Origin: Candidatus Cloacimonadales bacterium | Lineage (GTDB): Bacteria; Cloacimonadota; Cloacimonadia; Cloacimonadales; JAFGVF01 | Assembly: GCA_963667035.1 (NCBI GenBank) | Contig: OY762964.1 | Span: 2,400,001 to 2,464,000, forward strand | Direction of reading: 5' to 3' | Length of the DNA stretch: 64,000 bases | Part shown: piece after piece, positions 15,384 through 55,188 of the stretch | How the letters are laid out: the number at the start of each line of letters is the position of its first letter | How positions within the stretch are numbered: the first letter of the stretch is position 1 | The notes under the pieces: generated by a model | What the model saw: only the letters and a program-made list of their open reading frames with translations | Databases searched by the model: none | What the model was told of the DNA's origin: nothing | Program-made: the position numbers and the translations under genes

Positions 15384-15518
15384 CTTAAGTATCTCTTAAG
15401 TCCTTCTTTGCTCTATCTTAATTCTAATTAATCTCTTTCTCATTACCAATTTGTTCCTCGTTAGCTTCCCGTTAGATCCTCGTTACAACGGATGAGAAAG
15501 AAATTGGAAAGAAACGGG
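15384..15518. repeat. 11-bp-periodic intergenic array 1
   Basis: CTTAAG-like units at 15384, 15395, 15406, 15417; CGTTA(G/C) at 15459, 15470, 15481; then AACGG at 15487 and 15513, and GAAAGAAA at 15496 and 15507. Confidence 0.65.
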
Positions 15519-15642
15519 ATAGAAATACTCTTTTATCATCTGTTATAGTAAAGCAATGAAATTGATGTAAACCTTATAGATAAATATAAAGAAAGAACTT
15601 GACGTGTAGTCTATAATTGGGACATTCCCAAAACAAATTAAG

Positions 15643-17373
15643 ATGAAAGGTTATATTTATTTTATGGTTTCGAAGAGATTTATTTTTTTACTACTGTTTA
15701 TGTTTTCATTGCTATATGCTCAAAGGAATTACTATCCTTTACCGGAAAGATACCATACATATCCGGAGATGATTAAGGAAGTAAAAAAGGTATGTCGAGA
15801 GCATCCGGAATTAGCAGAATGGGAGATAATCGGCCATAGCGGTTATTCGTTAAAACCGATTTATGCAGTACGAGTCTCTAATCATGTTAATAGAAACCTA
15901 AATAACAGACCGACTCTAATGATTCACGGTTCTTCGCAAGGTGAAGAAGTAATCGGAATAGAGATATGCCTGGCTTTATTAAATGAAGTTACCGATTACT
16001 ATGGAGTTAATCCGGTACTAACTGAATTGTTAGACAAATTTGAGCTCTGGTTTGTACCGTCCATGAATCCGGAAGGCTATGACATGGTCTCTTCAGGTGA
16101 GTTCTATTTATGTAGAAAAAACCTGACAGACAGTAACTTCGATGGCTATCTGGATGTTTTAAGAGACGGCGTTGACCTTAACAAGAATTTTGATTTCAAC
16201 TGGATTGACTTTGCTAGACCTCATCCTGAAAGTATTTATTTTAAAGGTCATGCTCCCGCTACCGAGACTGAAGTATTGGCAATGCAGGATTTCTTCGCTA
16301 GAGAACATTTTACGTATGCCTTGAACTACCACAGCTCTGCAGCGGGAAGCTTCTCGGAATCCATATTCTTTCCTTGGAATGACGGCGAAGAGAAAAGTCC
16401 TGATTATGACCATTTTCTTGAGCTTGGTTCAGTATATGTAAGCCATCTTCCAAAGGACTATTTGCCCGGTAACTATGAACTGCATCTGGGTAAAAATACT
16501 ATGATTGGCTACCTCAGACATTATATGTATGCAAAACAAGGTACCCTTGCTTTTGATATTGAGACCGGTGGTAATACTGAGGAAGGATATGCAGTTGTCA
16601 GACCCGGTGAAGACCAATTAATTAAAATTATTAATAAGCATTTGTTAGCATTTAACTCTATTGCTGAAGATATGCTTAAGAAAACCGTTTCCATTAGAGT
16701 TATCGATAAACTGAATAAACCGCTTATCGATAAAGAATTCCAATGGTTTGACTATCCATCGTCCTACTACACGGAACTTAAAACAAATTCTGCCGGTTAT
16801 ATATTCAAATATCTGCCTATAGGGAAAACCAGATTATTAATTGATGACGAATATGTGTTTAGCATTGAAAGTAATCCTGCTATGTTACAAACATGTAAGA
16901 TACCATTTGAGCACATAAAAAAGCCGATGCCTGAGAAGAAAGTAAAAACGATACTACCTAAATACACATACTGTCTGTACCAATCAGCTATCAATAACTT
17001 CTATCTTTACTCTGATTCCGCTATCAGAATGGAATTCTATGCCAAAGATTTCAATGATAAAGTAATCCGTTTTGACAGTCTGAAAATAGCTACCGATTCC
17101 AAGAGTTGTAATCTGAGAATAACACTTAAGAACAGGAATGGAGATGTAATCAGAACGAGAGAAGTCCAAAAAGATAATTTGGACGAACAACTAGTAATTC
17201 CTTTTGCCGGGAACATTCTGGAGAAAGCTGAACTTGAGCTAGAAAACCTCTCAGATAAAACTTTCACAATCAAAGAAGAAAGAACATATCTATCACATGA
17301 CTCAGAAATACAGGTTAAATATAAGACATGGCAGAATCAGGAAACTTCTGACCTGGATGTGGAGTTAAAATGA
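15643..17373 (+). CDS. Exported M14 zinc carboxypeptidase-family protein
   Basis: Signal peptide; YHTYPEM; WFVPSMNPEG; RKN; GVDLNKNF; NYHS; DIET. The first zinc motif reads QGEE. Confidence 0.8.
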   Translation: MKGYIYFMVSKRFIFLLLFMFSLLYAQRNYYPLPERYHTYPEMIKEVKKVCREHPELAEWEIIGHSGYSLKPIYAVRVSNHVNRNLNNRPTLMIHGSSQGEEVIGIEICLALLNEVTDYYGVNPVLTELLDKFELWFVPSMNPEGYDMVSSGEFYLCRKNLTDSNFDGYLDVLRDGVDLNKNFDFNWIDFARPHPESIYFKGHAPATETEVLAMQDFFAREHFTYALNYHSSAAGSFSESIFFPWNDGEEKSPDYDHFLELGSVYVSHLPKDYLPGNYELHLGKNTMIGYLRHYMYAKQGTLAFDIETGGNTEEGYAVVRPGEDQLIKIINKHLLAFNSIAEDMLKKTVSIRVIDKLNKPLIDKEFQWFDYPSSYYTELKTNSAGYIFKYLPIGKTRLLIDDEYVFSIESNPAMLQTCKIPFEHIKKPMPEKKVKTILPKYTYCLYQSAINNFYLYSDSAIRMEFYAKDFNDKVIRFDSLKIATDSKSCNLRITLKNRNGDVIRTREVQKDNLDEQLVIPFAGNILEKAELELENLSDKTFTIKEERTYLSHDSEIQVKYKTWQNQETSDLDVELK

Positions 17374-18224
17374 AAGCTCTAGGAAAGACTTCGAGCTACC
17401 CTCGAAACTATGATCCGGAACAATTGGAGAGAGTACCTCGCTCTTTGAATAGAGTACCTCTGGGAATTGATGATAAGAAACTTCCATTTACCGGTTATGA
17501 TATATGGCATGTATATGAAGTAAGCTATCTTCTTAAGAACGGAGCTCCACAAACAGCTATATGTAAGATTACCATACCGACTACATCTGAGTACATTGTA
17601 GAAAGCAAGTCGCTGAAGTTGTATTTCAATTCTTTTAACATGGAGATTATGGGAGAATGCCCTGAATCTGCATTAAAAAATATGAAGCATACTGTTCAGC
17701 ATGACTTGGAAAAACTGCTTGAGTGCCAAATAGCCCTAGATTTTCATACTCAACAATCGGATATAAATTACGGGTTTAATGCCATAAACATTGATAATCT
17801 AGTAAGAGATATTGATTCTATTGAAGTATATAGTGAATCACCTCAGTTAATAAGTTATACTGAGAATATTGGGACTATAGAAACTCTTTATTCCACTCTT
17901 TTAAAGAGTAATTGCAGAGTAACTAATCAGCCTGATTGGGGAAATGTTCTGATAAGTTATAGTGCTGACAAGAAGCTGAACCATGTAGATTTGCTTAAAT
18001 ATATAATCTCTTTTAGAGACGAAAATCACTTTCACGAAGAGATAGTGGAAACAATATATAAAAGATTATATGACCTTCTAAAACCTAAAGAGTTGTTGGT
18101 AATAGCCTTTTATACAAGAAGAGGCGGAATTGATATCAATCCGGTAAGAGTTTTAAACAAAGCATCACTTCCAAAGGAATATATTAACACTCATATATTA
18201 CAAAAAGGTCAATTTAGACAATAA
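17370..18224 (+). CDS. queF: NADPH-dependent 7-cyano-7-deazaguanine reductase QueF, long (bimodular) form
   Basis: LGKTSSYP, DIWHVYEVS, VESKSLKLYFNS, LKSNCRVTNQPDWG, FHEE, YTRRGGIDINP. Confidence 0.95.
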   Translation: MKALGKTSSYPRNYDPEQLERVPRSLNRVPLGIDDKKLPFTGYDIWHVYEVSYLLKNGAPQTAICKITIPTTSEYIVESKSLKLYFNSFNMEIMGECPESALKNMKHTVQHDLEKLLECQIALDFHTQQSDINYGFNAINIDNLVRDIDSIEVYSESPQLISYTENIGTIETLYSTLLKSNCRVTNQPDWGNVLISYSADKKLNHVDLLKYIISFRDENHFHEEIVETIYKRLYDLLKPKELLVIAFYTRRGGIDINPVRVLNKASLPKEYINTHILQKGQFRQ

Positions 18225-18227
18225 AGA

Positions 18228-18869
18228 CTACACCGTAAGCTTTCTCACCAAGTGATGCACCTTAGTCTCTCCCTTCCCGGGAAGTTGACTTTGGGAATCA
18301 AGCTCCATAAGCTCTGCCATTTGAAGAGCATGTTCGAGCCGTGGTAAAAGTTTGGAAAAATTGAATCGGCTTTTGCTATAACCTCCCATAAATTGCTTCA
18401 TCAAGTGTTGCACATCTTTATACAACTCCAACTTCCTAAGCTCAGGTAATCTATGTTCAGGGATAAAGTGCATTAATATCCAAAGCTCAAAGCAAGGATT
18501 ACTGATTGCCAGATTATAACCTTTTCGTCTACACTCCCTGGCAATACGAGGTAGGTCTGCCCAACTATCCTGATCGATAACAACCCAGTACTCATCGTTG
18601 TAACGTTCAAAAGCCTTACGAGAGCCAAACTCGGCTACTTCCCTTTCAATATATTCATCTATAAGTCCGACAATATACTTAGGGGCGGAATGACCTTCCA
18701 CATTACGTTCAAGGAAGATAAAAGAGATGTTCTCTTTCACTAAGGAAGCAAGAGCTTTGAAATAACGAGGTTCCGTCTTACTGCCTTCCGTAGATATTAT
18801 TATCTTCTTTGTAGTACGACTCTTAGGGTGAGTGAAGGGTTTTATTTCCCTTAGTTGTGTGAAAGGCAT
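18228..18869 (-). CDS. RloB-family (TOPRIM-like) protein, AbiLii-like
   Basis: ISTEGSKTEPRYF, WVVIDQD and SNPCFELWILMHF motifs. Confidence 0.85.
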   Translation of the reverse strand: MPFTQLREIKPFTHPKSRTTKKIIISTEGSKTEPRYFKALASLVKENISFIFLERNVEGHSAPKYIVGLIDEYIEREVAEFGSRKAFERYNDEYWVVIDQDSWADLPRIARECRRKGYNLAISNPCFELWILMHFIPEHRLPELRKLELYKDVQHLMKQFMGGYSKSRFNFSKLLPRLEHALQMAELMELDSQSQLPGKGETKVHHLVRKLTV

Positions 18870-18871
18870 AC

Positions 18872-20197
18872 TTATTCCTCGTTAAACAATTCGATTACAG
18901 GAATTGCACCATATCGGCCACTAAGATAATCTCTTGCGATTCTTTTATCGAAACGCTCTTTGAACTCTTCCATTGAATAAAGCTCGGAAGTGTGAAAATA
19001 GTTCTTCTTAATGAACCAAAACTCATCTCTTCGGAATAGAGTTAAATCCAGAAGATTTGTATCGTGGGTTGTTACAATAAGCTGACTTCTGTTAGTTCCG
19101 TGGAAATTAAAGTACTCTCTAAACAAACCTCTGATTAACACGGTATGTAGACTTCGCTCAACTTCATCAATGATATAAACAGAATCATTGTTCTTAAGAT
19201 CATAAAGTGTAGGAAGTAAATCCAATAAACGACTTGTACCGTCAGACTCTTCCCCGATATCAAAGTCTATAGTCTCTTCTCCCGGAATCTGATGAGAGAA
19301 TACAAGGATATCGGCTTTAAGAATGCCATCCCTCATAGAAACAGCATACAACTCCCTTTGTGAGGTTACACCTCGCACTAGGATTACTCCTTTCTCTCGT
19401 ATATTCCTACGAATATCCTCTTTCATCTTTGGAGGTATACTAACTCTGCTGTCATCAAAATCCAGAGTACGCTTTGTCATGTTTGAAATGCCTGTATCCA
19501 GCTTGGAAAGCATCTGCTTAACAAAATTATAGAACTCCTCATCAGTAAGGATGTTAAACATATTCAGATATTTAGTATTAGGATAGATGATTTTAAGTTT
19601 ATAAGCAAACCAACCGGTAATATGAGAATAGTTAGGTGCAAAACTGTGCATGATAGTTGTCATACATAGTTTTGAAGGAGGTGTTGCCGTTTCAAGAAAC
19701 GCCTGATTAAAAGCAATCTGCTTCTCCTCATTCATATTCATAGTTAGAGATACTTTTGTTCTACCATTCTCTGTTATTCTTTGGAATACAGGTTTAGGTT
19801 TTCTAGCTATTAATTGATAACACCATTCCTGCTTAATCTCATTAGTGCCTGCAATAAACCCATATACGTAAACGCTACCTCCTGCAAAAAAAGTAAACTC
19901 AATAGAACTATCCTCCAAGTTAGCATCTTTCTTCATTTTAAAACGTGGAAGCGATACCATAGAAGGATTCTTGGGACCGTTGATTATGAACCTCTTCCCT
20001 ATATCTATTGCTTTAACTAGATTGGATTTACCGGAGGCATTAGCACCGTATATTAAACATGCTTTTAAAACATTGGGATTCTTTCCTGGGGTCTTTATCA
20101 CATGATCCTTATTCTTTCTGGGAGCTCCGGGGAATAACCGAAAATCGATTTCATCGTAAAATGAAAGAATGTTTTTACAAGAGAATCTTATTAACAT
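18872..20197 (-). CDS. RloA-like AAA_21 ATPase, AbiLi-like
   Basis: MLIRFSCKNILSF, IYGANASGKSNL, EESDGT, IDEVERSLH, QLIVTTHD, RRDEFWF, YLSGRYGAIP. Confidence 0.88.
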   Translation of the reverse strand: MLIRFSCKNILSFYDEIDFRLFPGAPRKNKDHVIKTPGKNPNVLKACLIYGANASGKSNLVKAIDIGKRFIINGPKNPSMVSLPRFKMKKDANLEDSSIEFTFFAGGSVYVYGFIAGTNEIKQEWCYQLIARKPKPVFQRITENGRTKVSLTMNMNEEKQIAFNQAFLETATPPSKLCMTTIMHSFAPNYSHITGWFAYKLKIIYPNTKYLNMFNILTDEEFYNFVKQMLSKLDTGISNMTKRTLDFDDSRVSIPPKMKEDIRRNIREKGVILVRGVTSQRELYAVSMRDGILKADILVFSHQIPGEETIDFDIGEESDGTSRLLDLLPTLYDLKNNDSVYIIDEVERSLHTVLIRGLFREYFNFHGTNRSQLIVTTHDTNLLDLTLFRRDEFWFIKKNYFHTSELYSMEEFKERFDKRIARDYLSGRYGAIPVIELFNEE

Positions 20198-31458: not shown

Positions 31459-31549
31459 CACTGTTTTCCCACTGTGCAAGCACTGTGAACCCGGTGTTTC
31501 AGTGCGTGGATAGTGCATTCACAGTGCCTGTACAGTGCAAAATCAGTGC
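31459..31549. repeat. 11-bp-periodic inverted intergenic array 2
   Basis: CACTGT at 31459, 31470, 31481; (C/T)AGTGC at 31500, 31511, 31522, 31533, 31544. Confidence 0.92.
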
Positions 31550-31582
31550 GTTGGTTGTAATTACAAATCAGGTAAAGTATAA

Positions 31583-31598
31583 AGGCATGTTTATTGCA
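31583..31598 (+). promoter_or_regulatory. Candidate sigma-54 (-24/-12) promoter
   Basis: AGGCATGTTTATTGCA has GG-N10-GC spacing and is close to the consensus TGGCACG-N4-TTGCW. Confidence 0.6.
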
Positions 31599-31757
31599 TA
31601 ACTCATTGCAAATCGCACTGATTACATTAATAAATAGCGATAAACTCTATTTCATTTGTTAAGAGTTAACTTCATGAAAAAGCTGATTAGTTGACATAAT
31701 ATTGTGACTGAATAATGATGATTGGTTCTCTTAACGAGGCTAAAGGAAATAAGGAAA

Positions 31758-32951
31758 ATGAATAAGAAAATACTGTTTTTACTCCTTGTCGTTTCATTCT
31801 TATGCGGACTATCGGGAATTAGTTTGAGTGATTTAAGCTATGGAACTGACTCTACACTCGATATTATGACATGGAATATTGAATGGTTCCCCAAGAACGG
31901 AACAGCAACTATGGATTCGGTAGCAACAATAATCGAAGCACTTAATATGGATATTTATGCAATCCAGGAAGTAAGTGATACGACGGCAGTTAAGCAAATG
32001 GTCAATGGACTTGATGATTACGAATACTACTTCTACTCAAGCTACTTTGCAGGCTTGGCTTATATCTATAAAACTGATGAGATTATCGTTAACAATATTT
32101 TTGAAATATATACTTCCGAACCTTATTGGAGACCATTCCCACGCTCACCTATGGTTATGTCGATTACTTATAACGGAGATTACTATTATATCATCAATAA
32201 CCATTTGAAAGCATTCGGAGACGGTGTCATCAATTACAATGACCCTTGGGATGAAGAGACAAGGCGATATGATGCTTGTAACTATTTAAAACAGTATATT
32301 GAGTCTGCTCTTCCAAATGAGAAAGTCATAGTTCTGGGAGATATGAACGATGTTCTTACGGACAGTTCTCCTAATAATATATTCCAGAACATTATTGATG
32401 ATTCGAATAATCTGCAATTCATTGATATGGATATTGCAACAGGGAACTCCTACTACTGGTCGTATCCGGGATATCCTTCTCATATTGACCATATCTTCAT
32501 AACAAACGAACTCTTCAATGAGTTTAATTCTGATAACTCATCAATTCAAACAATAAGAATTGGTAATTACATGGCTTATGGATTCTCAACTTATGATAAT
32601 TACGTTTCGGATCACTATCCCTTAGCGTTAAAATTATATAATCCTACTGCTATAGAAGAAGATGTTAATTCTGCAAATAATTTTAGTTTAATGAACTACC
32701 CAAATCCCTTTAATCCGACCACAACTATCTCATTTGCTCTTAGAGCACAAACCCAAGTAAAGCTAACAGTTTATGATGTAAAGGGCAGGCAAGTAAATAC
32801 TCTGATTAATAATAAGATGAACTCGGGAAATCATGACATTGTGTGGAACGGCAGTAACAATAAGAATATGAAAGTAAGTTCCGGTATATATTTCTTAAGA
32901 CTTGAGACTGATAAGAATGTGAAAACAATTAAAGCTGTTATGATGAAGTAA
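31758..32951 (+). CDS. Secreted endonuclease/exonuclease/phosphatase (DNase I-like) with T9SS-type CTD
   Basis: MTWNIEWF, AIQEV, NHLKA, LGDMND, IDHIFI, SDHYP; NYPNPFNPTT...SGIYFLRL. Confidence 0.9.
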   Translation: MNKKILFLLLVVSFLCGLSGISLSDLSYGTDSTLDIMTWNIEWFPKNGTATMDSVATIIEALNMDIYAIQEVSDTTAVKQMVNGLDDYEYYFYSSYFAGLAYIYKTDEIIVNNIFEIYTSEPYWRPFPRSPMVMSITYNGDYYYIINNHLKAFGDGVINYNDPWDEETRRYDACNYLKQYIESALPNEKVIVLGDMNDVLTDSSPNNIFQNIIDDSNNLQFIDMDIATGNSYYWSYPGYPSHIDHIFITNELFNEFNSDNSSIQTIRIGNYMAYGFSTYDNYVSDHYPLALKLYNPTAIEEDVNSANNFSLMNYPNPFNPTTTISFALRAQTQVKLTVYDVKGRQVNTLINNKMNSGNHDIVWNGSNNKNMKVSSGIYFLRLETDKNVKTIKAVMMK

Positions 32952-32979
32952 AATAATTACCGGTCTTGTACAAAACATA

Positions 32980-33006
32980 AAAGGCAGTGAGTAATCAGCT
33001 GCCTTT
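32980..33006. terminator. Probable bidirectional terminator between convergent genes
   Basis: AAAGGCAG...CTGCCTTT stem. Confidence 0.7.
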
Positions 33007-33023
33007 ATAATTGCGTTTAAGTT

Positions 33024-39000: not shown

Positions 39001-39215
39001 AAATCGATGTCAATTTGTGTATCAGCTTTTAATAGGTTATTGACGTATGGTTTTTCATAAGAAAAGATAGGTGACTTGGGAATATTGAAATAAGTAACTT
39101 TGTTTCCTGAAACTTTATGGTATCCTGCAAGTCTAATCTCGGGAGGGAAAACATTCGCAACGAGAGTTGCAGATAAAAGGATTAAGACTCCAATTAGAAT
39201 AATCTTTCTATACAT
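33024..39215 (-). CDS. sprA: SprA/Sov-like outer-membrane translocon of the type IX secretion system
   Basis: 2063 aa with signal peptide; IEYDGDDDEIVQKVEAGNISLSL, QGLFGVK, LSEGVDYIVDYDMG, AYIDDME, IDMGDISE, DTEDMDENG; amphipathic beta-strand C-terminus ending in F. Confidence 0.85.
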   Translation of the reverse strand: MYRKIILIGVLILLSATLVANVFPPEIRLAGYHKVSGNKVTYFNIPKSPIFSYEKPYVNNLLKADTQIDIDFDKMKVVYKTTYRNIKVMPDLYVGFDSYFNKLWQNTLTDNITTNSIDYILSEDRQVDTGIIPEITIKIPKEAIPKGMRSILGDEQGRLNLDGSQKLSITGTSTKRETNLVYEGKDNTNFDMEMKQDLDLRLRGTIGSKISVDLKHNSNTDENLFDPNNIHIEYDGDDDEIVQKVEAGNISLSLSGSKYASTSISSQGLFGVKGEIKVGDLSVQAIFSEEEGQKNKQKYTGNSQQESSIIGSKNYANRTHYFVEPMQRLFELYTQEEVEASGLPSGWADNAIKTEDGKWKVNGSLLPQPGTLVVYLDDGIATNDQTITRPGDPIVNEDGIEYYPSFTEQTEENNDYYVDYESGMIVFNKSINKICTIGIAYIDNSGQLVPSNYDAEGDTLHLKLIRIRNQKYTDDPDDQYSKWTYMAKNIYDLGMRGIKSEGFELKVYTVNEDGTENYRVSDDIDHGSRDTLIKYLDLDTNNDDIVDSSDRVIDLTAGYIYYPFIKPFYSLGDTLIYKLDQESVHSDDFSYKMSVKGSISRERINLNQINILEGSVSVKLNGSTLSEGVDYIVDYDMGEISFLNSRAKDPNAEIEIEYEFRSGFSIERKTMAGLRADLAIGDVGNIGTTFVYKSEKVTDEHPEIGNENYNMFLGDIDADIKFNPEFMTKMVDALPLIKTTAESEISLSGEVAFSFFDIYGNNDTKAKEAYIDDMESVLQPFPLGVTRQVWNPASEPQDVGIDKARTYWFKQENVYAGQVYDPETLTDEEENDEINVMAIKMVPDSTATSDRQWGGLMRYIGNEIDFSDMKYIQVLLKAENYAQSPLSQVRMHIDMGDISENFYTYGENGTPILHREDGANGGTLDGDLEAREDVGLDGIPDNAEGDDEDDDYDINAHFKDDQGHQGHQDEYSAVNGTESNGVLDTEDMDENGLLDQLNRYFEYVVEDITDRTQSEYLENDNNGWKLFRIPLNENNIVGQITAPDISKIKYVRIWFEVDETTKVNLVEFEVVGNKYLERPIYNVTLNADDVEVYNVVDTVTINDNDESIAIGVADNQKDNHYISPKGTYKVEQGTQTLEQSLRLDATNLQPNHIGLVRHKENKSTNWLSYNALRYWIYPEMDEEISYNDSIYVVFRAGADSLNYYEIRYKTKPNAYYPRMERSLWKEISLDFSKLTRLKNASPDDADTLFVTEGDYTFIRYKNPTLSSIQELSMGVMIPNGNPGFTGKIYFNDIRVADPNTNVGIAYSIDLRTKFADFLDFTVSYEQKSDNFRKEILRNSQTSYIDQTNFNMSGKVYLHKFLPYDWGYNIPVQVNRTQSWGIPRFKANSDILRKDLEDIYLDKEENKSKSYTAEVTLQKNASKPKWWTKYTLDSTSLSARVTYTEANTPTNIDTTLAYNGTYTYNLSIPREKIGIKIFKNYYWYVIPRTLDNTITLTASDPKSWTFDTTKKEFLPTLNSKKSKYINTTNTVNYDILSDLTSTYRLSTKRDLVYKKYVSDINVGEETEYKQTLDVTYNPNHFPNIYSFSISPQASFNETRRLLNTNTTDNVEEYRFERSGGVKRDTSINFTLKNSDMLKSLSRKFSENSSKKATKKSEDSKDEKVIDKKEKEINTKYEESASSKVKEIGNDAEDVKYDTKYKERVKELQTMLDKGAITKEKMDKELASFEKNYNDNDYSPKPSPKDDIKNGGEDKAGRSSKSSEPTNIFTYISKLKNIVVSFDNNYSTDYSDLNNRPEFMYQLGVPDVVARDSLNSIKNKNTISVNTGIELTRNIDISTGYSYSFETTEANSSSQRESVTFPDISVNVSEFQKWIGIERVLTSSRLSSSYSYSVKKSGDFDWDEPNTVTKELSLSPLINWNGNWLKNVNTTASYGFTNSKTTTDRGAYKSLSERNSNVINGSISYSFTAARGLKLPFMNKRMRLKNELTSSMNFSYNIDKEENKGNENTVVVMDKTKFTLTPTVSYNFSKNIKGGFDLQYSNEKNHKSEESIRIFSTALWIQVKF

Positions 39216-39249
39216 TTATTGCCTTACTTGTTTATTAATTCAAAAGTGA

Positions 39250-40029
39250 TTAGATTACCTGGCTAATCATATACAAGCCATCAAGTGTCAATTGCTTATC
39301 AACAACATCCAACTCTTCTGACTCTCCAACCAACAGACTGGAGATACCGCCTGTTGCTATGCATTTGATTTCACCCAGATGCTTATATTGCTGTCTGATA
39401 GCTTTAGTGAACCCATCAATCATGAAGATGTGACCCCTAATTATACCTGACAATAAAGCTTCTTTAGTATTTGTGCCCAATAAACGTTCCGGTTGGTCAA
39501 GCTGAATATTAGTAAGAAGTGCTGCTTTTGTAAAAAGCCCATTAGCAGAGCTTCTAATACCCGGAGAAATTGCAGTCCCATGAAAGTGACCGTCTTTATC
39601 TACAAACTGGATTGTTGTTGCTGTTCCTAAATCACAGACAATACAATTCGTTTTGTACTTCTTCCAAGCAGAGTAAGCATTTACTATCAAATCAGCTCCT
39701 ATAAAGGATGGATCAGCTATGCTATAGCTTAATCCTAAAGGCAATATCCCGGTTACGTTAATTAGCGGACAATCAAAATACCGCTGCACTAAATGGGTAA
39801 AAATTCTGGTCAATTCTGGAACGACCGATGACATAGCAACTTTATCGATATATACTTCCTCTTTGATTGTAGTTGAAAAAAAGGTTTGTATTTGGCAGTA
39901 ATATTCATCAGAGGTTTTTTCTCGATCAGAATGAACACGCCAGTTTGCACTTAAAACTCCGTCTAAATAAAATCCCAAGACAACATGCGAGTTGCCAATA
40001 TCTACTACCAGTACTGCACTTTTTTTCAT
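39250..40029 (-). CDS. coaX: Type III pantothenate kinase
   Basis: VDIGNSH, GAD, DLGTATT, ISPG, GTNT, ATGG, LTLDGL. Confidence 0.93.
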   Translation of the reverse strand: MKKSAVLVVDIGNSHVVLGFYLDGVLSANWRVHSDREKTSDEYYCQIQTFFSTTIKEEVYIDKVAMSSVVPELTRIFTHLVQRYFDCPLINVTGILPLGLSYSIADPSFIGADLIVNAYSAWKKYKTNCIVCDLGTATTIQFVDKDGHFHGTAISPGIRSSANGLFTKAALLTNIQLDQPERLLGTNTKEALLSGIIRGHIFMIDGFTKAIRQQYKHLGEIKCIATGGISSLLVGESEELDVVDKQLTLDGLYMISQVI

Positions 40030-40169
40030 TAATCGACTTTCTAAACCTATTATTAATAGTCAAGTAAAGAATTTCATAAGGAAGATGAAATGAGAATTAT
40101 CAAACATATTGATTGTAATTCTAAAGTTATTATGTTACGATTAACTTGGCATAAAGAAAAGTGGTAATT

Positions 40170-41510
40170 CTATTTCTTCAATCCCAGTTCTTTTATCTTT
40201 CTGGATAAATTACTTTGTTGTAATCCTAAGGCATGGGCTGTCTTAGTTATATTCCACTCAAATTTCTTGAGTTGCTCCGAAAGATATCTTTTCTCACAGT
40301 TCATTTTTTTAACTTGATATGATACTGATTCTGTCCAAAACTCATGTTCGGAAGAAAACTCATCAGGATTTATTATTAAATCATTTATGTTTATAACAGG
40401 ACCATCTGTGAATATATATAATCTCTCAATCAGATTTCTTAACTGTCTGACATTACCCGGGAATGTAACTTTTACAAGATTATCAAGTACATCTTGAGAG
40501 ATTTGTTTAATTGGCATATTCATTTCATCAGCAAAGAGTTTAGAGAAGTATTGAGCTAGCACCGGAATATCCTCTACTCTCTCTCGTAATGGAGGAATAA
40601 CTATTGGAACTACGTTTAATCGGTAGTAAAGATCTTCCCTAAAACGTCCTTCTTTAACCATTTCTTCCAGATTCTTATGAGTAGCAGCAACGACTCTTGT
40701 TTCTATTCGTATAGATTTATTGGAGCCTACTCGTTCAAACTCTCCTTCTTGGATAACTCTCAGTATTTTAGCTTGAGCAGATAGATTCATATCTCCTATC
40801 TCATCCAGAAAAAGTGTTCCTTCGTCAGCTTCTTCGATTTTACCTTTTTTACTTCCAACTGCACCAGTGAAAGCTCCTTTCTCATAACCGAAAAGCTCAC
40901 TTTCTACTAGTTCAGCAGGTATAGCGGCACTATTGAATCTAATGAAGTTACCCTTTCTTTTACTTTGTTTATGTATTGCCCAAGCTACCAACTCTTTACC
41001 TGTTCCGCTCTCTCCCCTTATCAAAACTTTAGAATTAGTTGGAGCAACTTTTTCAATCTTGTTTTTAAGCTCTTTTATGGAGTTACTAACTCCAACCATT
41101 CTATATTTGCTCTCAGCATCTTTTTTGAGTTTCCTGATACCTTGAGTTAATCTTAGGATTTTTAGATTACGTTGAAGAGTAAGTCTAACCATAGGAAGTG
41201 ACAAAGGTTTTTCTAAAAAATCAGCAGCTCCTGATTTCAGAGCTTTAACAGCTAAAGGAATATTCCCATGACCAGATATCATTACGACAGGAAATACATA
41301 CCCGCTGTTTCTAATTGTTTCCAGAACGTCTAAACCACTTTTATCGGGTAATTTAACATCAAGAAAGAGCATATCTGGATTGTAAGTTGCTATTTTAGTT
41401 AAACCATCTTTAGCATTTAAAGCTACATCAGCAGAGTAACCCTCTTCTTCAGATATTTCTTTCAAAAGTCTACAGATGTTTCGTTCGTCATCAATTATCA
41501 ATACTTTCAT
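40170..41510 (-). CDS. Sigma54-dependent response regulator (NtrC/NtrX family)
   Basis: Receiver domain; GESGTGKE; ESELFGYEKGAFTGA; LFLDEIGD; FREDLYYRLNV; Fis-type HTH. Confidence 0.93.
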   Translation of the reverse strand: MKVLIIDDERNICRLLKEISEEEGYSADVALNAKDGLTKIATYNPDMLFLDVKLPDKSGLDVLETIRNSGYVFPVVMISGHGNIPLAVKALKSGAADFLEKPLSLPMVRLTLQRNLKILRLTQGIRKLKKDAESKYRMVGVSNSIKELKNKIEKVAPTNSKVLIRGESGTGKELVAWAIHKQSKRKGNFIRFNSAAIPAELVESELFGYEKGAFTGAVGSKKGKIEEADEGTLFLDEIGDMNLSAQAKILRVIQEGEFERVGSNKSIRIETRVVAATHKNLEEMVKEGRFREDLYYRLNVVPIVIPPLRERVEDIPVLAQYFSKLFADEMNMPIKQISQDVLDNLVKVTFPGNVRQLRNLIERLYIFTDGPVININDLIINPDEFSSEHEFWTESVSYQVKKMNCEKRYLSEQLKKFEWNITKTAHALGLQQSNLSRKIKELGLKK

Positions 41511-42654
41511 CAGACCTCTCCAGAGTAATTATAAACTTTGTTCCTTCTCCGACTGTACTATCAACCCATATATCTCCGGCATTAGCTGTCACAAGTTTTT
41601 TCACAACAGATAAACCCAATCCCGTGCCATTTTGCTTCTTTGTAAAGTATGGGTCAAATATTCTCGGTAAATCTTCTTCGGCAATTCCGGAGCCTTTATC
41701 TTCTATTACCAGTACCACTCTGCCTATCTTACTACTTAATTTTATCTGTACACAACCTTCTTCAGTACACGCATCTAAAGCATTTTGTAGCAAATTAGTA
41801 AATATCTGATAAAAATGATTACGATCAAAGCATATATGGGCATTTACATCCATTTCAGTTGATATCTCGAATCTTCCCTCATAGCCTGCAATAATCTCAT
41901 TTATTTGAACTGCAGGAGCGAATATTACTTTATCAGGTTCCACCGGACGAGCAAAGTCAGAGAAACTCCTGGAAATAGCTAAGAGGTTCTCAATTTCATG
42001 ATTAATTACTTCCAAAGCTGAAGGGAAATAGCTTGTGAAAGCTTCTCTATCGGTAATATACTTCTCCTCTAGTCTTTCCAATGATAGTTTTATAGGTGTT
42101 AGAGGATTCTTTATCTCGTGAGCAAGAATCCTAGACAAATCTTTCCACAATAGTTCTTTCTCTGAGGCTAGGAGTTTCTGTTGAGTTAACTCCAATTCCT
42201 CAGACATTATATTGAAAGATTTCTTTAGGTCTCTTAATTCCGGAATTCCTTTCTCAGAAAGATGGACATTAAAGTTTCCTGCCGATATAAGGTCAGTTGC
42301 TTTTCTTAGTTCATATAAAGGTTTGCTTATAGTATTAACAATAAAAATAAAAGAGCTTATCCCAATTATGAACAGAATTAAAACCCAAACCCAAGAATAA
42401 ATTCTCATGTTTATTAGTGATGTTCTTGATGCTGCTCTGGCTTGAAGGTATTTGTTAAGAATCCTCTCAGCTTTTAAAGAATCATTCACTGTTGAATAAG
42501 AAGCATCGGACAAGAATTCTTCAAGACCTAAGTTTTCATAAGCAATACCAATATCATTTTGACCATTCTGTACAACTTTATTCAGAAGCCAGATACTTCC
42601 TGAGAACAAAATTATGAATATAATTATTAGGTAATATTTTAGTCCTATCTTCAT
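41491..42654 (-). CDS. Membrane sensor histidine kinase (HAMP-HisKA-HATPase), NtrY-like
   Basis: Two TM helices; HAMP domain; WKDLSRILAHEIKNPLTPI; NLLQNA; GTGLGL. Confidence 0.92.
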   Translation of the reverse strand: MKIGLKYYLIIIFIILFSGSIWLLNKVVQNGQNDIGIAYENLGLEEFLSDASYSTVNDSLKAERILNKYLQARAASRTSLINMRIYSWVWVLILFIIGISSFIFIVNTISKPLYELRKATDLISAGNFNVHLSEKGIPELRDLKKSFNIMSEELELTQQKLLASEKELLWKDLSRILAHEIKNPLTPIKLSLERLEEKYITDREAFTSYFPSALEVINHEIENLLAISRSFSDFARPVEPDKVIFAPAVQINEIIAGYEGRFEISTEMDVNAHICFDRNHFYQIFTNLLQNALDACTEEGCVQIKLSSKIGRVVLVIEDKGSGIAEEDLPRIFDPYFTKKQNGTGLGLSVVKKLVTANAGDIWVDSTVGEGTKFIITLERSDESIDN

Positions 42655-43196
42655 TTATAATCAACCGGATTAATATTTATTTTGAGTTCGGGAGACTTAT
42701 TCTTCCATAGCAGATTAAGGTCGAACTCTTTTTGTTGTGAAGCAAAGAATAACTTATTTAGCTTTGCAATTATTCTAATAGTACACTTATCACAATCAGG
42801 AAGTAACAATAACCTATCAAACTGAGAAAATGCCTTGATCATCTCGTTCAACTCAGTAAAATAACTATCCGGGAAACCTGCATTATTTTTCATAACATAA
42901 GTTTTCTCCATAGGTTTATATTCTACAGTATGATTATGTACCATTGTTTTATATATCTCTCCATCGGCATAAATATCAATATCGAAATCCAAACTTATTT
43001 CTTCACCTGATTTAAACACATCATCAAAATCATTTTCAAAAGCTCCGACTAACTCTGTTCTACAGCTGATTCCACTATCAAGCACTTCTAACTCAGGAGT
43101 GTTAAAAGATGCATTATTACCTTCATAAGATGAAAATAACAAGAAGGAAAGAGCTATTGCTCCTTTCATAAGATTATCAGCTATTTTTTCAAACAT
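42651..43196 (-). CDS. DUF4390-like exported protein
   Basis: Signal-like N-terminus; size and position directly upstream of the NtrY/NtrX-like pair match DUF4390-ntrY-ntrX operons. Confidence 0.55.
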   Translation of the reverse strand: MFEKIADNLMKGAIALSFLLFSSYEGNNASFNTPELEVLDSGISCRTELVGAFENDFDDVFKSGEEISLDFDIDIYADGEIYKTMVHNHTVEYKPMEKTYVMKNNAGFPDSYFTELNEMIKAFSQFDRLLLLPDCDKCTIRIIAKLNKLFFASQQKEFDLNLLWKNKSPELKININPVDYK

Positions 43197-43250
43197 GGAT
43201 TACCTCTACAATATTTTTACCCTTCGGCTCTTTTTGGCAATATCTTTTTT

Positions 43251-43294
43251 AAAAAGAGGAGAGGCCCCGCCTACATGGCAAGGCCCGACCCTGA
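43251..43294 (-). terminator. Probable terminator/attenuator after the PDZ gene
   Basis: Minus strand GGGCCTTGCC-ATGTA-GGCGGGGCCT (with G-U pairs) followed by CTCCTCTTTTT. Confidence 0.6.
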
Positions 43295-43310
43295 CCGCTT
43301 AGAGAAATAG

Positions 43311-44618
43311 TTAAAATCCGAAACTTATCCAAGGACCAACAGTAAATGCATAACCATTCATAGTTGTCTCTGGTGAGTTATCTATAATAAAGTTTCCGCT
43401 TGTTTCTTTCCAACCCGGTTCCGAGCTATACCCGATCAAGTATGATCCTTCGGCTCTTATTCCTAACCAACTTAGAATGCCTATGTATAAATCGGCTTTA
43501 GGACGTGCGATATAATAGCTTCTCTTCATCTTCATAGCATTGTTACTATCTGAGTCAAATTGATTGTCTAAATCATTCCAATTGTAAACACCATTTGTCT
43601 GAGTAAAGTTAAGAGTCTGATTACCGCTTCCTAAGGCAATACCTAATGTTGGTTGAATCCACTTGGCTAACATAAATTTCTTATCAATTGTTATGCCCCA
43701 CCAGTTACTTTTAAACTCCATTCTTCGAGTAACGCTGAAGTCTTTTGTCGAATCCTTATATTCATCAGGTTGTATAGGATTAGAGGAATCACTTGTAGAA
43801 ATCAAATGTCCAACTTTTCTATTTATCTTGTAACTTGTTCCCATAGCACCAAGATAAAAACCTTTACCAACATGAATTCTACCGGTAAAACCATTATAGA
43901 ACACTCCATCTTCATCTAACTTATCAAACCCCATTTTTCCGATAACATCGTTAACATCTTCAATATCATCCATCATATACCAATATGGTGTATACATGAA
44001 TTCTAGAGATGGATAATCTAATCTCTTTTCAGATGTTATTACTGACTTTGTTGTAGTTGTGGTTACCTTCTTCTCAGGACGTCTACCAAATGTAAAGTTC
44101 ATTACTTTCTCTTCACCGTATGAGAAATACTTAATTGGTACGGTTTGATCAGGCATATAAGACTGTATAATCTTTACAAATTTATCTTTATCTATACACT
44201 TTTTACCATCAATTTCAATTAAAACATCATCAGCGGCAAGACCATGTTGATGAGCAGGAGAAGATGCACCTGTACCTGTGATGAGAACTCCATAGTTATA
44301 TGGATAATCAAGTTCTCTAACTTTATTCAGGGTCAAATTCTCATAATAAACACCCATATAAGCTCTTTCACCGGCTGATTCGGTTGTAGAGTTAACTGTG
44401 ATTATTCTAGTCTCATCATCTCCATCAATTGCAAATTCAATATTCTCACCAAGCATCTCGGCTTTTTCACCAACTCTCTCACCAAATGCTTCCACCTTTT
44501 CACCAAATGCTTCCATCTTTTCTTCTATTTCATCTGGGCTATCAGCTGTAATTGTAGCTGAAAGCAACCACACCAGTGGAAACAGAGAAATCATTAAAAC
44601 TATTAATAACTTTTTCAT
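43311..44618 (-). CDS. Exported PDZ-domain protein with predicted C-terminal outer-membrane beta-barrel
   Basis: Signal peptide; heptad repeat EAFGEKV; PDZ (AYMGV...SPAHQHGLAADDVLIEIDG); alternating beta strands ending GPWISFGF. Confidence 0.75.
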   Translation of the reverse strand: MKKLLIVLMISLFPLVWLLSATITADSPDEIEEKMEAFGEKVEAFGERVGEKAEMLGENIEFAIDGDDETRIITVNSTTESAGERAYMGVYYENLTLNKVRELDYPYNYGVLITGTGASSPAHQHGLAADDVLIEIDGKKCIDKDKFVKIIQSYMPDQTVPIKYFSYGEEKVMNFTFGRRPEKKVTTTTTKSVITSEKRLDYPSLEFMYTPYWYMMDDIEDVNDVIGKMGFDKLDEDGVFYNGFTGRIHVGKGFYLGAMGTSYKINRKVGHLISTSDSSNPIQPDEYKDSTKDFSVTRRMEFKSNWWGITIDKKFMLAKWIQPTLGIALGSGNQTLNFTQTNGVYNWNDLDNQFDSDSNNAMKMKRSYYIARPKADLYIGILSWLGIRAEGSYLIGYSSEPGWKETSGNFIIDNSPETTMNGYAFTVGPWISFGF

Positions 44619-44658
44619 TTTATCCTCCCGTCGTTTATTAATGTCGATCTTTTATTAC

Positions 44659-44675
44659 TGCACGATACGTTCCAA
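44659..44675 (-). promoter_or_regulatory. Candidate sigma-54 (-24/-12) promoter of the PDZ gene
   Basis: Minus strand TTGGAACGTATCGTGCA has GG-N10-GC spacing, 40 bp upstream of the start codon. An IHF-consensus match TATCAATATTTTA lies at 44704-44716. Confidence 0.65.
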
Positions 44676-44874
44676 TTTCATTCCAATCCAACAAGCTATT
44701 TTATATCAATATTTTACGAGCTCTCATCATCACTTTAAACAATTCAAGAGCACAACTATATATATCATTATGATATATCCGGCAGGTAGGTTTGATATAG
44801 TTATAAGGGATTTATAAGACATATTTCTTGCCATAATGAAATTAGCAACTATCATAACACTACAAAGGAGATTT

Positions 44875-46824
44875 ATGAGATTAAGAGATTATCTGTTTGA
44901 TGTTGCTCCGAAGATTGTTTCGTACGAAAGGGCTCGAAAAGGTGGAAAGAGAACCTCCAATCCTCTTACAATAACTTTTTCTGTTACTGGTGCGTGCAGA
45001 AGCTTATGTAAAACCTGCAATATAGGTAGAGTTTATATGGAAAATCCTGATATTGCCAAGAAAGATTTATCACTTAATGAGATAGAGTCTGTTTTTAAAT
45101 CTTTAGGGCATATCTACTTCTTCAATGTGTCCGGAGGTGAACCATTCATGAGAATGGATCTTCCGGAAATACTGAAATTAGCTTTTATTCATTTAAAGCC
45201 AAAATTAATTAGTATCCCGACAAACTCATTAGCTCCTAAATCAATTGAAAAAGCAACACTAAAAATCTTAGCATATATGGATGAATATCTTCCCCCTCAT
45301 GTACCTTTATCAATAAAACCATCTATAGATGGGGTTGGAGAAATGCATGACTATGTTAGGGGAATTAAAGGTAACTTTGTTAAACTGGAAGAAACTATCG
45401 ATAGACTTCTAGCTATTAGAGAAAAGAATCCTCGATTACATGTTGATTTAGGTACTGTAATCTCTAATTACAACCTTAATCACTTAGATGATCTTGAAGC
45501 ATGGGTACACAAAAGAGGCATAGAATCGTATAGACATGAGATAGCAGAACAGAGAGTAGAATTTCATAATGTAGGAGATCCGATAACTCCTTCTCCTAGA
45601 GCTTATAAACAACTTACTCGTGATTTTTCCAACAAAATTATTGAGAATATTAAAGGCAAAGCTCTTCACACAAAAGTAACCGAGTCGGTACGTCTTGCCT
45701 ATTATGATGTTGCAAACAACATTTTAAAGCAAAAGCAGCAAGTTACACCCTGTTATGGTGGATTATCTAATATCCATATGGATTATAATGGCGAAATATG
45801 GCCTTGTTGTATCCTTGGCGGAGAGCAATCCATGGGTAATGTAAGAGATTGGGACTATAACATTCAAGCTCTTATGGATTCACCTAGAGCTAAAACAGTT
45901 ATCGAGTATATAAGTAATGGAAATTGTGCATGTCCACTGGCTAGTCAGTGGCTTAACAATGTTTTACTCACGCCTAAGCACATGCTTAACGTACTCTATA
46001 TTCTTTTGGTAAAATTCCCGTTTAGATTGTTATCTCCTAGTTTAGGGAAGCCAAAAGTTGATAAAGAGGAAGCAATCATTCTGAAGAAGGCTGGTACTAT
46101 ACCCACTCCTTCATGTTTTAATCAAGATGAGCTTGAGAAGAATGATAAAGAGTTTACTGAAGTTAAGCCAATAACAAATGTTAAAACTTTTAGGGTCAAA
46201 GAGATCAATAATCTATCGAATAAAAACTACATCCTTACAATAGATAGGCACGGTATAGATTTCATACCGGGGCAATTCTTTATTCTTGGTCCTGCAAATG
46301 AGAAGATAGGTAGAGAATACACCATTTACTCAAGTCGATATAACTCTAACCTTAAGTTTATGATATCTGAAATCGAAAACGGACAAGTATCAGGAGCATT
46401 AAGAAAACTAGAACCGGGAGATGAAGTAAGAATCGAAGGACCATTAGGATATTTTCATGTCGAAACTGACCCCACTTTTAAAGGGAAGCATATATTCATT
46501 GCTACAGGTGCGGGAATTGCTCCTTTCCACTCTTTCATTACCAGTAATCCTGATTTGAATTATCAGGTTATTCACGGAGTACGCAAACTTGAAGAGAGTT
46601 TTGATACTTCTGATTATGAAAGGGAAAAGATGATCATCTGTACTTCTCGAGAAGATACCGGTGATTATCATGGTAGAGTGACAGACTATCTGAGAGATAA
46701 TCCGGTAAATGCAGAAGATATTTTCTATATTTGCGGAAACACTGATATGCTTTACGAAACTTATGATATTCTAATTTCTCAGGGAGTTACCAGGAAATCA
46801 ATCAAAGTGGAAGTCTTTTATTAA
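44875..46824 (+). CDS. Radical SAM (SPASM/Twitch) protein fused to a C-terminal ferredoxin-NADP reductase-like FAD/NAD domain
   Basis: AAGGAG RBS; CRSLCKTC; SGGEPF; CYGG...GEIWPCC...CACP; then REYTIYS, GQVS, IATGAGIAPF, YICG and terminal EVFY. Confidence 0.85.
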   Translation: MRLRDYLFDVAPKIVSYERARKGGKRTSNPLTITFSVTGACRSLCKTCNIGRVYMENPDIAKKDLSLNEIESVFKSLGHIYFFNVSGGEPFMRMDLPEILKLAFIHLKPKLISIPTNSLAPKSIEKATLKILAYMDEYLPPHVPLSIKPSIDGVGEMHDYVRGIKGNFVKLEETIDRLLAIREKNPRLHVDLGTVISNYNLNHLDDLEAWVHKRGIESYRHEIAEQRVEFHNVGDPITPSPRAYKQLTRDFSNKIIENIKGKALHTKVTESVRLAYYDVANNILKQKQQVTPCYGGLSNIHMDYNGEIWPCCILGGEQSMGNVRDWDYNIQALMDSPRAKTVIEYISNGNCACPLASQWLNNVLLTPKHMLNVLYILLVKFPFRLLSPSLGKPKVDKEEAIILKKAGTIPTPSCFNQDELEKNDKEFTEVKPITNVKTFRVKEINNLSNKNYILTIDRHGIDFIPGQFFILGPANEKIGREYTIYSSRYNSNLKFMISEIENGQVSGALRKLEPGDEVRIEGPLGYFHVETDPTFKGKHIFIATGAGIAPFHSFITSNPDLNYQVIHGVRKLEESFDTSDYEREKMIICTSREDTGDYHGRVTDYLRDNPVNAEDIFYICGNTDMLYETYDILISQGVTRKSIKVEVFY

Positions 46825-46853
46825 TCAGTAACTAATAAAGTTACAACGTAATT

Positions 46854-47498
46854 TTATATACAGTACTCTTTAACTTTAGCTATAAAGTATTCCCTAATCT
46901 CTGAAAGCCTTGTATCTTCAATACTTTCCGGGACTAGTATCTGACAGTAAGCTCCGGTAGTTTCATCGGTTACCGATGTTCTCACAGAGTCAGTCATAGG
47001 TGAGCCAAACGCTCCCTTTGAGTCTGAGTATACAATTCTACCCGAGAAGTTTATAACTTGATGATTAAGTGCCAAATACTCATCTGTAGTCTTCCCAAGC
47101 CTGATTTCGATATCACCTTCTATCTTTTCACTATCATAAATGCAAACAGGTACCTGATACTTTAAAGATACAAGATTCCCCAAATCTACAAGATTACTCA
47201 CCGTATAAAATTCTTTATTCTTTAGTGCTCTTCTGAGTAAAGCTTCCGAAGCCGGTCTTCGTTTTGTCGGGTCCATTCCCAACGCATGAAACAACCTTCT
47301 TACATCATTTACTCCCGGGATATCCGTAACTGAAACATTCCCATATCTATTCCTATAATCTTCAGCACATCTTAATAACTCAGAATGCACTTCCGCATTT
47401 TTGTATATTCTCAAGCCTTCAACATGAAAAACACTCACCTTCAAAGGTAAGTTATCTTTTACGTGATATTCATTATTTTCAACATATCTTATATTCAT
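46854..47498 (-). CDS. Stand-alone B3/4 (PheRS beta editing-like) domain protein
   Basis: GMDPTKRRPASEALLRR, NLVDLGNLVSL, YDSEKIEGDI, GSPMTDS. Confidence 0.85.
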   Translation of the reverse strand: MNIRYVENNEYHVKDNLPLKVSVFHVEGLRIYKNAEVHSELLRCAEDYRNRYGNVSVTDIPGVNDVRRLFHALGMDPTKRRPASEALLRRALKNKEFYTVSNLVDLGNLVSLKYQVPVCIYDSEKIEGDIEIRLGKTTDEYLALNHQVINFSGRIVYSDSKGAFGSPMTDSVRTSVTDETTGAYCQILVPESIEDTRLSEIREYFIAKVKEYCI

Positions 47499-47669
47499 TA
47501 TTTACAACCTCATCACTATTAACAATTACTAATAGAAGAACTTTGTCAAGTTTACGTTACTGCTATCTATGAAGAGAAAACGACATAAACGGAAAGAATA
47601 GAACAAACATGAGTTTAGTGCTTTGCGTATTCAAGTTTTCTTAATATCAATTATGCCCTATTTCAACAC

Positions 47670-47785
47670 TCGTGAATCTTTCGGGATTTGGTCATGATTC
47701 TCGTGGGAATTTCTCGGGCAAAGCCCCGAGTGATTCCCGAGAGAGTCCAGTGAGATTCCCGAGTGTGTCCCGAGTGTGTCCCGAG
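47670..47785. repeat. 11-bp-periodic inverted intergenic array 3
   Basis: TCGGGA-like units at 47670, 47681, 47692, (47703), 47714; CCCGAG at 47725, 47736, (47747), 47758, 47769, 47780. Confidence 0.92.
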
Positions 47786-47828
47786 AATTAAGATATAGCA
47801 GAAAAGGAAATAAGTTTGCGAATTCAAT

Positions 47829-49864: not shown

Positions 49865-49871
49865 ATGAAGT

Positions 49872-50684: not shown

Positions 50685-50689
50685 TCTAA

Positions 50690-50800: not shown

Positions 50801-50807
50801 GAGCTGA

Positions 50808-51194: not shown

Positions 51195-51205
51195 TCAGTA
51201 TCCTC

Positions 51206-51631: not shown

Positions 51632-51802
51632 TGTTTCTCCTTTTCCATATTCACTTATATCTATACTTTATAGCGGTTCAAAATATTTTGCACCCTCATT
51701 ATATGTCAAGGTAAATGGATAATTAATTGAATTTTATATAGATACCATCTCATTTGTACAACATGATATAATCTGAGTAATCCAAGATGTTTTTAATCAG
51801 AA

Positions 51803-52459: not shown

Positions 52460-52522
52460 ATTTTCACCTCTTAATCAAAGAAATGATGTTACTAAGTTCA
52501 AGTCAAATAAATAGATTGTTAA

Positions 52523-52590
52523 TTAACATCAAACTAACAGAACTCTCTCTACTAACAAAGAGTTAACTCAAAGCTTATCAAGAAATAACT
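52523..52590 (+). promoter_or_regulatory. (T/C)TAACA direct repeats at 11-bp spacing; candidate OmpR/PhoB-family boxes
   Basis: TTAACA 52523, CTAACA 52534; CTAACA 52552, TTAACT 52563, CTTATC 52574, ATAACT 52585. Confidence 0.5.
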
Positions 52591-52636
52591 AATAACTCGT
52601 AATTATATAGTAAAAAAGCTATATCAAGGAGTAAAA

Positions 52637-55003: not shown

Positions 55004-55025
55004 TAAGCTCTAATAGATAAAGTTA

Positions 55026-55064
55026 AACCTCCGTCATAGTTTTCTCCCTTCTATGACGGAGGTT
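55026..55064. terminator. Perfect 14-bp stem-loop downstream of the GT gene (terminator-like)
   Basis: AACCTCCGTCATAG-N11-CTATGACGGAGGTT, with no strong U-tract. Confidence 0.55.
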
Positions 55065-55138
55065 GATGTCAACTCTTCCACCACTGAGTAATCTAACTAT
55101 AGGTATAGAATACCTCACCCGTGAATAACCAATAGCTT

Positions 55139-55188
55139 GCGTTGATTGTCCGTTGGTGGTCCATTGGAGGGGCATTGCATAGCCGTTG
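55139..55188. repeat. 11-bp-periodic intergenic array 4
   Basis: GCGTTG 55139, CCGTTG 55150, CCATTG 55161, GCATTG 55172, CCGTTG 55183. Confidence 0.85.

Follow-up and report, generated by a model that had tools for sequence, protein, structure and literature searches.

The 64,000-nt stretch of the Candidatus Cloacimonadales bacterium chromosome analysed here (contig OY762964.1, positions 2,400,001 to 2,464,000; hereafter the window) harbours four intergenic arrays of short cores repeated every 11 bp, each of which proved to be one copy of a dispersed family of dyad elements. Several Cloacimonadota chromosomes carry arrays of this class, which fits no known system: the families share period and geometry, stand in front of genes for one family of unannotated ~150-aa proteins, are jointly spaced at even distances and are found at synteny breaks and beside insertion sequences (ISs). 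We see about an even chance that the arrays are protein platforms serving as chromosomal landmarks and recombination sites.

Periodicity and dispersed families

The window's own genome (G000, contig C1) is a chromosome of 3.10 Mb in one contig, with 35.6 % G+C. An earlier note, made from the letters of the window alone, had described four non-coding tracts with an 11-bp period, and all four stood up, with lag-11 scores of 35 (at 15.4 kb), 37 (31.5 kb), 59 (47.7 kb) and 27 (55.1 kb), each reached by 0/2000 shuffles, and scores of 4–16 at lags 9, 10, 12 and 13. The core named for each locus and the flip to the reverse complement in mid-array (weak in the third array said to show it) were as described, as were the mixed gene contexts, i.e. 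divergent at 15.4 and 31.5 kb, tandem at 47.7 kb and convergent at 55.1 kb, with unrelated neighbours. A possible fifth tract at 52.5 kb was not confirmed and is missing from both the segment scan and the profile hits; window 52490–52600 gives a lag-22 score of 17 without a lag-11 signal and may be a decayed array. The features are as follows.

15384..15552, no strand assigned: F7 element, core CGTTA at 15459, 15470 and 15481, inverted arm weak; gap between divergent DinG-like helicase and M14 peptidase genes; 13 profile hits in the genome
31440..31560, + strand: F0 element, CACTG x4, then CAGTG x5, and a terminal inverted motif; gap between divergent DUF697 and EEP-domain genes; 36 copies in the genome
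31599..31620, + strand: F0 tail, a TAAGTTATTG-like word and one further CACTG core; follows many F0 copies
47656..47788, - strand: F2 element, CTCGGG / CCCGAG units about a central dyad; behind the frr terminator; 23 profile hits in the genome
52490..52600, no strand assigned: possible fifth tract, not confirmed (lag-11 score 6.4, p=0.32)
55096..55227, - strand: F10 element, CCGTTG / CAACGG units; gap between convergent glycosyltransferase and lamin-tail-domain genes; 5 profile hits in the genome

No F2 element follows frr in two congeners, where the downstream synteny is broken as well. Scans of the window for tRNAs and Rfam families gave no match. Window 18228–20197 encodes an AAA_21 ATPase and RloB pair, a probable defence module.

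The period extends to the whole chromosome. Intergenic 5-mer matches number 1888 at lag 11 compared with 578±24 after shuffling, and 482–728 at lags other than multiples of 11, with echoes at lags 22 and 33. A segment scan found 152 lag-11 segments, 114 of them intergenic, and at most 16 segments at lags that are multiples of neither 3 nor 11. Short-read contigs from one sample are identical to window 31487–47735, which excludes an assembly artefact; these contigs, which drop rare variants, show no credible joint from an excision or an inversion at either of the two arrays they cover. Gene calls are the longest open reading frames (ORFs), which applies to all neighbour counts below, and de novo array detection misses weak arrays.

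The arrays had been taken to share a period but not a sequence. This has to be revised, since sequence conservation is absent only between families and present within each: every core marks a dispersed family of many similar copies. The 138 merged arrays of G000 cluster into families of 35, 22, 19, 12, 11, 10 and 9 members plus smaller ones, with 11 singletons, and a profile search gave 164 hits in 10 families, of which the window contains one copy each of F7, F0, F2 and F10. The elements are imperfect dyads of ~150 bp, made of two opposed runs of cores, whose symmetry peaks near the centre and again at 50–80 bp from the axis. Alignment of nine families shows conserved cores and variable linkers, and the number of units differs between copies of an element. 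Three congeners likewise have dispersed F0 and F2 elements at different positions, with many copies of F0, and some blocks of array plus flank were duplicated as units.

A linked family of ~150-aa proteins

Clustering the neighbours of all G000 elements yielded one recurrent family other than those of ISs, an unannotated protein of ~150 aa. Eight of its 11 full-length G000 paralogs start at most 600 bp behind an element (background 172/2182 ORFs, 7.9 %), and the eight have eight different array families in front of them. The co-occurring DNA-binding family that the earlier note proposed to look for thus has a candidate. The family was found in 100/158 genomes of the phylum, often in multiple copies, and lag-11 segments with new cores, many of them inverting mid-way, lie upstream of 36/89 homolog loci. 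Downstream of the gene, lag-11 scores reached no more than 12 in the 29 loci scored.

The presence of arrays follows the protein tree. In a quick tree of 151 rows, where the clade groups were picked after the labels had been seen and 37 rows outside them, mostly without arrays, were left out, upstream lag-11 arrays accompany 48/67 proteins in three clade groups versus 1/46 in one clade. The mean net charge is +5.3 in the array-bearing groups versus -1.2 in the 46-row clade. Sister proteins of G000 and a second genome, G001, share the array families F0, F5, F6 and F8. Across 46 rows (three doubtful rows dropped), core similarity was 0.53 at a protein identity of at least 70 % (9 pairs) and 0.07 below 50 % (991 pairs), and no specificity-determining region of the protein stood out (r 0.24–0.39 throughout). 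Dispersed arrays in sampled DNA, i.e. 22 in 200 kb of G001, 8 in 200 kb of G047, 5 in 140 kb of G013 and 7 in 140 kb of G014, resemble, by eye, those upstream of the paralogs of the same genome. None were found in samples of 120–140 kb each from G024 and G031, which have no paralog, or from G004 and G005, whose sampled paralogs fall in the clade without arrays.

An AlphaFold2 model of the protein (predicted local distance difference test score 96.5) shows a beta-hairpin at residues 14–34 and five helices, with conserved basic residues (K2, R33) in the N-terminal half. Searches of Pfam, PHROGs, NCBIfam, PDB sequences and, by Foldseek, PDB and viral structures gave no assignment, and the Atlas matches are Cloacimonadota clusters without a name. 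Ribbon-helix-helix binders such as TraM, omega, ParG and CopA occupy series of short sites in direct and inverted orientation. The three-helix core of the model matches TraM best (Z 5.2, root-mean-square deviation 2.2, 49 residues), followed by PutA (Z 5.0), and seven of the eight top fragment matches are proteins that we take to be ribbon-helix-helix DNA binders. This likeness is weak, since Z scores under 8 may be generic and are too low to assign a fold. Moreover, a helix occupies the place of the ribbon-helix-helix strand, the protein has an N-terminal beta-hairpin of its own, unlike those binders, and no sequence match of the family to ribbon-helix-helix proteins was found.

A second lead comes from a distant relative, L204, which exceeds the Pfam HMG_box cut-off over helices 2–3, has HMG boxes as its top PDB hits (E 0.056–0.8) and carries 11-bp repeats upstream; its alignment to the ~150-aa family is weak (probability 15 %, E 0.0017). 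Only two of 136 family members matched HMG_box, both below the cut-off, and no HMG box was listed in two wide fold searches of the model, which is not an exclusion. Relative to the canonical order of the L-shaped, three-helix HMG domain, a motif like HMG helix 1 would come after helix 3 in the family, making it a candidate circular permutation. Both leads point to DNA binding and neither assigns the fold.

L204:1447-2340 (- strand), L218 and L228 encode 300–350-aa proteins with a C-terminal module related to the ~150-aa family, and L204 is the only HMG_box hit above the cut-off in 121 genomes of the phylum. A longer fused form of the ~150-aa protein itself was not found, which is weak evidence. 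A possible kinship to DUF6266 was dropped, with no Pfam hit and nothing in the literature search. A second unannotated family, of ~200 aa (G000:C1:155593-156192, 787409-787996 and 2272788-2273369; L001, L003 and L008), follows the ~150-aa gene in convergent orientation in 3/3 G000 copies and is nearby in 5/7 G001 copies, with no match to the query in G004, G013 or G014. Tandem tracts with units of 7 to 9 bp are common upstream of homologs (e.g. L055, L057, L070 and L217); a lag-7 signal precedes 28/89 homolog loci, including clades without 11-bp arrays.

Spacing, synteny breaks and insertion sequences

After merging elements at most 1.5 kb apart, G000 has 133 sites with a mean spacing of 23.3 kb and a coefficient of variation (CV) of 0.46, compared with 0.93 for random intergenic placement (0/3000 simulations), and only six gaps are shorter than 10 kb. 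The three largest families, taken singly, are placed at random (CV 0.95 for F0, 1.09 for F1 and 0.70 for F2). The pooled spacing equals random placement with an exclusion of 11–12 kb that acts across families, except at 13 composite sites of two families. Sites with other cores, detected de novo in 400 kb each, are evenly spaced as well in G014 (20 sites, CV 0.39 vs 0.88, p=0.0002) and in G013 (16 sites, CV 0.41 vs 0.85, p=0.0016). Five control features in G000, three of them with fewer than 20 sites, have CVs of 0.78–1.36; promoter-like sites (CV 0.91) and REP-like motifs are not evenly spaced. Mapping the arrays relative to origin and terminus, as had been suggested, gave neither an ori-ter nor a strand bias.

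When 400 kb of G001 were compared with G000, synteny was broken at 45 places and kept at 34 roomy junctions. Arrays of G001 are present at 26/45 of the breaks and 5/34 of the syntenic junctions, and those of G000 at 14/45 and 1/34. Breaks and arrays both favour transcription-unit boundaries, and matching for gaps of 150–2500 bp (G001 arrays 16/29 vs 4/29, G000 arrays 11/29 vs 1/29) reduces this effect without removing it. In an earlier, smaller test the excess was significant for G000 arrays (8/20 vs 1/22) and not for those of G001 (8/20 vs 4/22, p=0.17).

Three IS ends lie at most 150 bp from an element in 7/7, 15/20 and 19/41 cases, compared with 15 % of the intergenic DNA. Each IS prefers a family and a side, and its ends stand beside the arrays at variable distances and are only loosely like the cores. 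Insertion beside their own ends has been described for IS30 and IS911 (available part of PMC9333248). None of the ISs seen has array-like ends, though no full IS survey was made. The histories of the two arms are uncoupled in F1 (r -0.08) and F5 (r -0.12).

As to individual cases in G000, an IS3-like end adjoins F0 in 7/7 cases (IS names are our own reading), another adjoins F1 in 11/16 cases and an IS481-like element lies around F5. Two insertions in G001 relative to G000 also contain arrays, i.e. L128:10619-15230, with two secreted FlgD-tail genes and an array in front, and L131:16809-18068, a 1.2-kb repeat mosaic with an F0 copy.

Possible function and comparison with known systems

Under the landmark reading, each element would be a duplex DNA platform for the small, basic ~150-aa protein with its beta-hairpin and helical core. 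Subunits would bind the 5–6-bp cores head-to-tail, one per helical turn, and two opposed runs of them from the central dyad would bend or wrap ~150 bp. Each protein lineage would read its own core, as the linkage suggests; one array, before the protein's own gene, would probably serve autoregulation, and arrays would have been copied to ~130 sites. The complexes of all families would then act as a single class of equivalent landmarks, excluding a second site within ~11 kb unless directly adjacent and cutting the chromosome into blocks of 10–40 kb, which would break, rejoin and take IS hits at the arrays, in keeping with the pattern seen. Spread may occur by recombination at arrays, i.e. by crossover, conversion and IS-driven rearrangement, and the spacing may come from selection for domain-sized blocks and/or the loss of short array-to-array segments.

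Several results weigh against this reading, in addition to the limits given above for the tree, the fold scores and the breakpoint comparison. The 32 sites in 400 kb of G001 have a CV of 0.72, which is not significant (p=0.14), with short gaps (<8 kb) depleted (7 vs 14 expected, p=0.0004). In G000 no paralog stands behind F2, with its 23 hits, or F7; the G000 protein most like the one linked to F2 in G001 is 50 % identical to it, and F8 goes with two paralogs, so the pairing is not strictly one-to-one. Two further homolog sets have upstream arrays in only 2/28 and 1/24 cases, which we explain by arrays following clade. The arms of F0, F3 and F8 are coupled, and signs of a central crossover are limited to F1 and F5. 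No enzyme for the spread was identified. Finally, since the genomes compared are related, counts across genomes are not independent.

The closest analogue is parC with its ParR protein. parC of plasmid R1 is 159 bp long, has two sets of five 11-bp repeats and is also the ParR operator (PMC2241845, in the part available), and ParR families of C. perfringens bind only their cognate parC (PMC9426499, likewise). The two are thus alike in size, period, location ahead of the gene and pairing of protein and site, and as in parMRC, a type II partition system, an iteron array precedes the gene of the putative binding protein. However, parC runs direct, with one centromere per replicon, whereas the arrays here have inverted halves and occupy 133 chromosomal sites, and the ~150-aa family belongs to no Pfam family. 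The 44 ORFs that neighbour 19 loci include neither ParM nor ParA, and no nuclease or recombinase recurs among them; the search for a motor did not extend to the rest of the genome.

The arrays may instead be selfish non-autonomous mobile elements, like REPINs or miniature inverted-repeat transposable elements (MITEs), in which case the ~150-aa protein would lend specificity to a transposase or recombinase that acts in trans, and the exclusion of 11 kb would be target immunity and not a host function. We consider this possible but unlikely; what separates it from the landmark reading is whether the sites are needed by the host. In its favour, the elements are non-coding, multi-copy, intergenic and of similar length, with terminal inverted repeats (imperfect, with fuzzy ends) whose motifs lie 50–80 bp from the axis. 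Comparison of orthologous loci, another step proposed at the outset, showed arrays present in one congener and absent from another, and one family is confined to a single genus among 60 genomes. The 13 two-family composite loci, the excess of same-family neighbours (27 vs 17.4±3.7) and the position of 4/11 Y1-transposase loci at most 1.6 kb from an array point the same way. On the other hand, the gene lies beside the repeats and not between them, with arrays upstream only, and the 44 ORFs of the neighbourhoods lack a conserved nuclease or recombinase. No target-site duplication was seen in three empty-site comparisons, a negative that is weak at 75–80 % identity, and the terminal motifs differ by family although the exclusion crosses families. 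If true, the selfish reading would be new as well, in that target immunity would act across families.

Described repeats of this kind differ in several respects. REPs and REPINs with their RAYT or TIRYT genes are likewise dispersed intergenic palindromes, each tied to a cognate gene (PMC3733652); RAYTs, however, contain an HUH motif and a catalytic Tyr motif, with repeats on both sides of the gene, and the REPs lack an 11-bp period. Here the 136 family members gave no Y1_Tnp hit, Y1 genes lie at separate loci, and arrays stand on one side of the gene only, in the 29 loci scored. The BrickBuilt MITE of Porphyromonas gingivalis is an intergenic multi-copy minisatellite with inverted ends, but a single family with 23-nt tandem units and no spacers, for which the available part of the description reports no binding protein, inversion or even spacing (PMC4596501).

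Ordinary regulons, in which each paralog would be a transcription factor and the arrays CarH- or Pho-type operators, are improbable. Pho boxes and CarH operators share the habit of tandem repeats, 64/147 arrays lie in divergent gaps versus 146/486 background gaps, and genes face away from the arrays over ~8 kb (0.38 vs 0.20±0.07). However, 17/147 arrays lie between convergent genes, the same rate as background (53/486), the flanking genes are functionally unrelated and positions are not kept between congeners. Operators would also not space evenly across families, and promoter-like sites do not. As far as the account extends, CarH operators, an example of 11-bp tandem operators, are direct repeats bound cooperatively on one face (PMC9304148); they lie over the promoters of particular target genes and form no multi-copy set of evenly spaced dyads.

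A role as auxiliary origins of replication of the iteron type, or as sites that titrate DnaA, seems quite improbable to us. The even spacing would suit them, F5 has a pair of DnaA-box-like words in 11/11 matches, several arrays of G001 contain comparable words, and 20/77 intergenic boxes lie near arrays. Against this, the chromosome shows one V-shaped skew, and a cluster of boxes lies near 2.569 Mb, GC3 skew does not clearly flip at arrays (0.0054 vs 0.0028±0.0025), a leading-strand bias is lacking and most families have no DnaA boxes. AT3 skew flips slightly at arrays (0.019 vs 0.0075±0.0037). Five DnaA-box-like words at G000:C1:2569030-2569189, near the skew minimum, mark the likely oriC.

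Structured RNAs or single-stranded DNA hairpins, in which 11 nt would be one A-form turn, are very improbable. In six of ten families, both strands fold far more stably than shuffled sequence (z about -4 to -6), but dyad symmetry alone gives such folding. The arms show no covariation in 9/9 families (p 0.10–0.99), and therefore base pairing is not the selected feature, i.e. the elements are not selected hairpins; strand preference is inconsistent, and there is no Rfam match in the window. Next to no probability remains for independent local duplication of 11 nt plus inversion at each locus, which the earlier note had offered as an alternative: unit number does vary between copies, as slippage would give, but the clustering and profile hits, the recurrence of whole elements, complete with terminal motifs and linkers specific to each position, at as many as 36 sites as well as in congeners, the linkage to one gene family and the even spacing contradict it.

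The note's view that neither one regulator nor CRISPR accounts for the arrays is borne out. CRISPR arrays consist of identical 23–50-nt repeats with unique spacers, whereas the period here is 11 bp, the cores are 5–6 bp long and the inversion lies inside the array. Its proposal of an unrecognised element class with common geometry and different cores is likewise supported, now with a candidate protein family. The literature covered, which left out most subscription papers and all supplements, contains no account of these arrays or of the ~150-aa family; single families may be listed in repeat catalogues published as supplements.

A tentative extension, which we hold to be possible rather than probable, is that the arrays represent a new chromosome architecture, in which small DNA-binding paralogs, each with a motif of its own, would build dyad particles of ~150 bp at regular distances of 10–40 kb. 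The particles would serve as interchangeable boundaries of domains, or anchors akin to centromeres, and as programmed joints for shuffling blocks of genes, and through motif turnover new pairs of protein and site would supplant older ones with the spacing kept. The natural pairs of protein and motif would give a set of orthogonal, small DNA binders. Each of the known bacterial landmarks (parS, matS and KOPS) consists of one motif linked to the origin, the terminus or a strand. In the present case, a large number of unrelated motifs of one geometry jointly tile chromosomes evenly in distant relatives, and two questions therefore become testable, i.e. what sets domain-sized units and why some lineages scramble gene order fast.

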